Virus record (IMG/VR): IMGVR_UViG_2663763287_000005
Source of the DNA: a virus
Lineage: Duplodnaviria > Heunggongvirae > Uroviricota > Caudoviricetes
DNA length: 8,985 nt
Strand: one strand, 5' to 3'
Each line of letters starts with the position of its first letter. Positions within the stretch are counted from its first letter, which is position 1. Position numbers and translations under genes: made by a program. This document shows positions 1 through 374 of the stretch, piece by piece. The notes beneath the pieces are model-generated. The model was not told where the DNA came from. It did no database searches and saw nothing but the letters and a program-made list of their open reading frames with translations.

Positions 1-41
1 AATATCATCAGATGGCTGCTTAAAAAAAGAACAAATGGTAG

Positions 42-374
42 TGTCCGCTATTGCCAGTACACCTCAAACTACTCATTGCCAGATGGGAACTGACCGCAGA
101 ACAGGCTGTCGCACAGCAGTTAAAAAATCAGGTGTCAAAAGGAAATCTTATCGATACCGGATTTTGTATTTTTGCCCTTAGTAAGCTGGCGATGGCTTTA
201 TCCAGTACGCTTGACTCCATTCCTTTGTCCATGCAACGACAGTTCCCGGATTTAACGCCGCGTCATATTGATCATCTGAAAATCCTTATTGCTAAGGGAG
301 CGAATCAGTGCGCGCGTGCGGGGGATAAATTACCGGATTTACTCGATGAATATATCAGAACAACAACTGAGTAA
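42..374 (+). CDS. nu1: Terminase small subunit (lambda Nu1-like), C-terminal portion only; 5' part truncated or disrupted
   Basis: The frame of ORF 51..374 translates to ...ELTAEQAVAQQLKN...DTGFCIFALSKLAMALSSTLDSIPLSMQRQFPDLTPRHIDHLK...LPDLLDEYI, colinear with the C-terminal ~110 residues of lambda Nu1 (recalled: ...HRLTRAQADAQELKN...ETAFCTFVLSRIAGEIASILDGLPLSVQRRFPELENRHVDFLK...LLSEYIEQSG). In-frame stops at 21-23 (TAA) and 39-41 (TAG) close the frame; the first start is TTG at 51 with no obvious Shine-Dalgarno. Stop TAA 372-374 lies inside the start of A, as in lambda. Confidence 0.6.
   Translation, partial: CPLLPVHLKLLIARWELTAEQAVAQQLKNQVSKGNLIDTGFCIFALSKLAMALSSTLDSIPLSMQRQFPDLTPRHIDHLKILIAKGANQCARAGDKLPDLLDEYIRTTTE

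Follow-up and report, generated by a model that had tools for sequence, protein, structure and literature searches.

The window analysed here is a stretch of 8,985 nt from a Caudoviricetes record (IMG/VR IMGVR_UViG_2663763287_000005). It opens on a gene for the small terminase subunit, nu1, of which only the 3' part is present in frame, and the question is how the 5' part came to be missing. Based on comparison with related genomes, we consider it almost certain that the insertion sequence IS600 transposed into nu1 of a lambda-like prophage of Shigella flexneri; a deletion most probably followed later in the window's lineage. An earlier, sequence-only reading of the window had offered a frameshift or nonsense lesion, a deletion or recombination junction, and an N-terminus too divergent to be recognised.

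The nu1 fragment and the IS600 end beside it

The Nu1-type sequence of the window is restricted to the C-terminal part of the protein, in frame 3 at about positions 67–374. The remnant (67–374, plus strand) consists of codons 68–169 and the stop codon TAA 372–374 and represents the half involved in self-assembly and TerL binding, while the N-terminal DNA-binding half (codons 1–67, 201 nt) is absent. An ORF of 107 aa extends in frame 3 from TTG 51 to position 374. Its residues 11–105 align with residues 86–180 of lambda Nu1 (NC_001416) at 45% identity (BLASTP, E = 5e-28), it matches Pfam PF07471 (Phage_Nu1) over profile positions 85–163 of 164 (E = 5.6e-19), and the remnant matches PHROG 57 ('terminase small subunit') over positions 87–189 of 199 (E = 1.1e-37). 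In lambda Nu1, the winged-helix cosB-binding domain lies within residues ~1–80, whereas the region 86–180 is assigned to self-assembly and gpA binding. The lambda gene resembles that of the window in overlapping the start of the large-subunit gene, but its protein contains the equivalent of residues 1 to ~80 that is absent from the window remnant; the initial claim of C-terminal homology without the DNA-binding half is thus borne out. The large-subunit gene terL (gpA-like; 346–2194, plus strand) starts at ATG 346, which corresponds to the annotated start at 3281 in the locus of Escherichia coli FDAARGOS_943 (L001), and loses its 3' end in a run of Ns (2195–2307). Its relatives encode GpA_ATPase and GpA_nuclease domains. 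As in FDAARGOS_943 and lambda, nu1 lies directly upstream of terL and overlaps it (nu1 stop 372–374 versus terL ATG 346).

Upstream of the nu1 homology, frame 3 is closed twice, by TAA 21–23 and TAG 39–41 (translation YHQMAA-stop-KKNKW-stop-CPLLPVHLKLLIARWELTAEQ...IRTTTE-stop). TTG 51 is the sole start for the nu1 ORF and is located inside the IS600 inverted repeat, and reading the sequence by eye revealed no Shine-Dalgarno-like motif in positions 35–50. Both stops and the unsupported TTG were as the sequence-only reading had described them; its suggestion that they mark a frameshift or nonsense lesion in nu1 was mistaken, because both stops are the insertion sequence's own. Positions 1–66 are the right (3') end of IS600, an element of the IS3 family, on the plus strand, with the last six codons of orfB at 3–20, the TAA at 21–23 and the right inverted repeat at 40–66. 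The IS600 orfB frame ends in ...FREKYHQMAA-TAA, which identifies TAA 21–23 as the transposase stop, and TAG 39–41 lies where the right inverted repeat meets the interior of the element. The nu1 remnant is in the same frame as orfB by coincidence. The repeat is imperfect and terminates in ...CACCTCA, with its final CA at position 66; positions 40–66 are the reverse complement of TGAGGTGTACTGGCAATAGCGGACACT, which matches the left end of the element (TGAGGTAGCC...) at 19 of 27 positions.

Database comparisons revealed a sharp discontinuity at 66/67, with IS600-type matches on one side and nu1-terL matches on the other. Of 5426 E. coli genomes, 2770 contained IS600 copies that matched window 1 to ~67 in a megablast of positions 1–100, and the IS600-type matches amounted to 5395 places in 3006 records (at most 43 per genome), on both strands and on chromosomes as well as plasmids, annotated as 'IS3-like element IS600 family transposase'. 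When positions 1–1200 were compared by megablast with phage records and complete E. coli genomes, all matches to intact nu1-terL loci began at window position 66. The genome of S. flexneri 2a strain 2457T (AE014073; L009) reproduces window positions 1–80 exactly as the end of a complete IS600 of 1264 bp with TGAGGT...ACCTCA (TG...CA) ends, and the last six orfB codons and stop of the window are identical to this copy. In the relatives, orfA encodes an HTH_Tnp_1 domain, and orfB encodes HTH_21, rve, rve_3 and rve_2 (rve being the DDE catalytic domain). At their right end, annotated IS600 copies have exactly the sequence of window 1–66, and the relatives show the 3-bp target duplications of this element; unlike a full copy, only the terminal 66 bases lie inside the window, and the flanks of the closest lineage form no duplication. 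The sequence-only reading was right to list a junction among its options, and that junction lies at 66/67, but it had not considered an insertion sequence. It had also named the finding that would overturn it, an upstream ORF that joins the nu1 frame once a sequencing error is corrected; the relatives show the 1264-bp IS600 upstream instead.

Left-hand arrangements at the S. flexneri locus

Relatives of the window were located by the exact sequence of the frameshifted portal fragment (2534–3589), which is present in very many assemblies, complete chromosomes included. The right junction, CACCTCA/AACTACTCATTGCC, was identical in every S. flexneri locus read, including that of 2457T, and an exact-pattern scan for the junction also found it in S. 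flexneri SFBU1023. On the left side of IS600, two arrangements were observed.

In the first, split-gene form (L003, L008 and L010), the first 201 nt of nu1 (in L003 at 3580–3784), together with the region upstream, lead into the left end of IS600, with ...GAAGAGAAAC/TGAGGTAGCC as the left flank and CACCTCA/AACTACTC as the right flank. The trinucleotide AAC is present on both sides of IS600 in all three loci; its right copy, at 67–69 on the plus strand of the window, corresponds to 3002–3004 of the intact gene in FDAARGOS_943. This 3-bp target-site duplication indicates that a simple transposition insertion came first, and a nested IS600 in L010, which has its own 3-bp duplication (TAT), provides an internal control. 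In these split-gene genomes, the IS600 within nu1 is itself broken at its position 181–184 by further insertion sequences. Pieces of other IS3-family elements and of further IS, 2.3–2.6 kb in all, are found there, and L010 also has the second IS600, so that the insertions form a nested pile-up (L010 3937–5200; L003 3969–6525).

In the second, deletion form (L002, L004, L006, L007, L009, L013–L016 and L018), the left end of IS600 adjoins a truncated Rz gene (134 versus 155 aa; flank ...GGTATCCGGGACGGG), with one extra G between the Rz sequence and the IS600 end. The exact 25-mer of this Rz flank is absent from the split-gene genomes owing to one base difference at the junction. The flanks carry no duplication (GGG versus AAC), and this mismatch points to a secondary deletion after the insertion of IS600. 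No nu1 5' sequence was detected upstream in ~7.5 kb (L002–L009) or 3 kb (L013–L016). Relative to L003, the deletion form lost ~3.2 kb, composed of ~1.95 kb of phage DNA and an inverted IS600 copy, and the lost DNA included the Rz 3' end, three small ORFs, the expected cos region and nu1 codons 1–67. A deletion is the simplest reading, given that gene order and orientation on both sides match the prophage; it may have arisen by recombination between two IS600 copies or as an adjacent deletion. The lambda cosN core (GGGCGGCGACCT) had no exact match in L001, L002, L003, L008, L009 or L010.

Two observations on individual deletion-form records are worth recording. L002 (GCA_008973575.1) encodes, at 2321–3742 and outside the stretch covered by the window, a group II intron-type reverse transcriptase (RVT_1 and GIIM domains) between this prophage's genes for antiterminator Q and holin, an enzyme that the other loci lack. 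Record CP178302.1 (L018/L007), titled 'Escherichia coli strain ECMA0423', contains the exact IS600-nu1 junction and this cryptic prophage, and may come from Shigella or EIEC despite being filed as E. coli.

Since no more than 66 bases of IS600 fall within the window, we infer the left side of the element in its source genome from near-identical genomes. The only live alternative to a truncated gene there is a split one, with the 5' 201 nt of nu1 and cos just beyond IS600, perhaps with nested insertion sequences. That form is real in several complete S. flexneri genomes and has an identical right-hand junction, and the window's own upstream region lies outside the window; we nevertheless regard it as unlikely, since the window carries the deletion-form allele at all eight sites that separate the two forms in 1–2193. 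Over the same interval it differs from the split-gene group by 7–9 mismatches and a gap, versus two mismatches, both adjoining the N run, from L002, L004 and L009. Judged from these alleles, the source genome most probably has the deletion arrangement, Rz'-IS600-'nu1. The window has G, G and C at 2180, 2185 and 2194, where its closest relatives have T, T and G; these are the sole differences in 1–2194, over which the window is otherwise identical to L002 and L004. None is more than 15 nt away from the first N run, which points to poor sequence at a contig end and not to real variation.

The preferred history, an insertion followed by a deletion, runs as follows. IS600 inserted between nu1 codons 67 and 68 and so cut the DNA-binding N-terminal half off from the C-terminal half, which assembles with the large subunit. 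A second IS600-associated event most probably then removed everything between the Rz 3' end and the insertion point, including the cos region and the 5' part of nu1, to give Rz'-IS600-'nu1-terL. What is left in the window is a 3' fragment (67–374) devoid of a promoter and a start of its own, preceded by in-frame stops and a TTG that belong to the insertion sequence.

The intact gene and the remaining explanations

An uninterrupted nu1 gene of 510 nt, encoding 169 aa, is present in E. coli FDAARGOS_943 (L001 2800–3309; WP_074132335.1), and the window is 99.9% identical to this gene at the DNA level from position 66 on. Window position 67 is nucleotide 203 of the intact gene, within codon 68, so that 67 codons are missing. 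The similarity to the FDAARGOS_943 module extends from window position 66 through the portal gene (99.6–99.9% DNA identity), and PhiR12-type phages share 86% identity with the window over 66–1200. In these copies, unlike in the window, nu1 is complete (169 codons), the portal gene is uninterrupted and the terL product has 642 aa. Coverage of PHROG 57 by the two fragments is complementary, with the 5' fragment spanning profile positions 12–89, the window remnant 87–189 and the intact protein 12–189.

An N-terminus that is present but too divergent to recognise was suggested for the window at the outset. The intact homologue lends this some appeal, given that the ~70 residues at its N-terminus have no match to Pfam Phage_Nu1 or, by BLASTP, to lambda Nu1, and a PDB sequence search returned chance-level matches only (E > 0.5), so that the missing domain is not tied by sequence to the structure of the lambda Nu1 DNA-binding domain. 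The N-domain of this Nu1 lineage thus appears truly divergent from that of lambda, and a reader relying on lambda could not have recognised it even if it were present. Nonetheless, the domain of the intact homologue (MATQTEVARHLSLTDRQLRRLQKL...) is encoded in no frame of window 1–66, which leaves this explanation a negligible probability.

A point lesion or sequencing error at 15–50 that breaks a continuous nu1 with its N-terminus upstream is just as hard to sustain. Two in-frame stops do lie close together just 5' of the homologous region, and the window's assembly has N runs and a poor contig end; yet 1–66 resembles no nu1 and is identical to the IS600 end, and the divergence between the window and the intact gene sets in precisely where the insertion sequence ends in CA. 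Moreover, window 1–374 shows no variant across the ten independent S. flexneri loci compared, and positions 15–50 are identical in more than 15 independent assemblies, finished genomes included in both cases, which disposes of a sequencing error there. Frame 1 of positions 1–40 (NIIRWLLKKRTNG) is vaguely like 'AVIKWYAERDAE' of lambda Nu1, as if hinting at a frameshift, and this candidate was ruled out because the stretch is IS600. Lastly, short-read contigs often end in insertion sequences, and the window starts 66 bases into one and has scaffold gaps, but a chimera formed by a collapsed repeat at a contig end is scarcely conceivable, as the identical IS600/AACTACTC junction sits inside complete and megabase-scale chromosomes from many projects.

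GC content is mildly lower in 1–400 (0.42–0.46) than downstream (0.45–0.57). The lower GC had been taken as the sign of a mosaic boundary, and position 66/67 does adjoin foreign DNA; however, the low GC of nu1 is also found in the intact relative. The match of the window to phage 21, ev017 and their lambdoid relatives begins only at position 442 (83%), whereas that to PhiR12-type phages begins at position 66, so that nu1 together with the initial ~100 nt of terL is a mosaic module of its own in lambdoid phages.

Packaging lesions and prophage decay

Gene callers predict the 107-aa ORF in numerous S. flexneri assemblies (362 blocks of the collection). It is an IS600-'nu1 fusion (51–374, plus strand), of which codons 1–5 and the first base of the sixth are IS600 repeat, and it is probably not a real gene but a mechanical fusion. 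A promoter and terminator consensus scan of window 1–500 found nothing, and a hybrid outward promoter at the IS end is therefore unsupported. With no promoter-like site, no ribosome-binding site and a start only at a TTG within the IS repeat, the remnant is best treated as a pseudogene despite the Phage_Nu1 calls of many pipelines, and it is presumably not expressed. There may nevertheless be read-through transcripts that start at the phage late promoter or inside IS600, and TTG 51 may be used weakly as a start codon. We consider it highly improbable that the fusion is translated at a low level and, as a fragment that still binds TerL but has no DNA-binding domain, poisons the assembly of terminase in superinfecting lambdoid phages whose TerL matches. 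Were this so, the ORF would act as an accidental exclusion factor encoded by the prophage and could account in part for the fixation of the junction in S. flexneri; clonal descent explains that fixation equally well, and no finding here supports expression of the fusion.

The portal gene of the window is split into two ORFs (2534–3589 and 3504–4127) by a T6 tract at 3522–3527 that is T5 in the intact E. coli relative. The same truncated product is found in ten of ten S. flexneri loci, complete genomes included, which shows an inherited mutation and not a homopolymer sequencing error. The frameshift that had led the sequence-only reading to propose a decaying prophage is thus real and common to the S. 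flexneri relatives read. Together, a small terminase without its DNA-binding domain, the loss of the Rz-nu1 DNA (including the expected cos) in the closest relatives and the portal frameshift indicate that the prophage is cryptic and unable to package DNA.

Genome decay driven by insertion sequences is well documented in Shigella, and these defects fit it. Five insertion sequences, IS600 among them, have expanded in all Shigella species, and the Shigella reference chromosomes contain 229–348 IS insertions and at least 199 pseudogenes each (Hawkey et al. 2020, PMC7373316). The locus in the window is one such case of IS-driven pseudogene formation and shows no difference of substance. The word 'prophage' does not occur in the main text of that paper, which apparently does not discuss this locus, and our literature search found no paper describing the IS600-nu1 junction. 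The event is of a kind already known, ordinary IS-driven decay of a Shigella prophage, and its importance lies in little beyond annotation, where the 107-aa Phage_Nu1 call should be read as an IS600-truncated pseudogene.

The sequence beneath the first N run is available from the near-identical genomes. In the deletion form it contains a perfect hairpin (GTGCAGTTGCATCC-CGCAA-GGATGCAACTGCAC; 9722–9756 in L002 and L009), whereas in the split-gene genomes and FDAARGOS_943 the left arm is imperfect and has one extra nucleotide (GTGCTGGCGGCATCC). The change has the look of a template-switch mutation that corrected a quasipalindrome. It puts terL into another frame, so that the product ends in ~30 different residues (636 versus 642 aa), and would add one more lesion to the packaging machinery.

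Both N runs of the window (2195–2307, 113 bases; 5516–5596, 81 bases) stand in place of 37 and 4 bases, respectively, in near-identical complete S. flexneri genomes. Each is ~76–77 bases too long and resembles a scaffold gap or masked sequence. The first takes away the terL 3' end, and the second falls inside the S49 protease gene; the 699-aa ORF at 289–2388 is an artefact of reading through the first N run.
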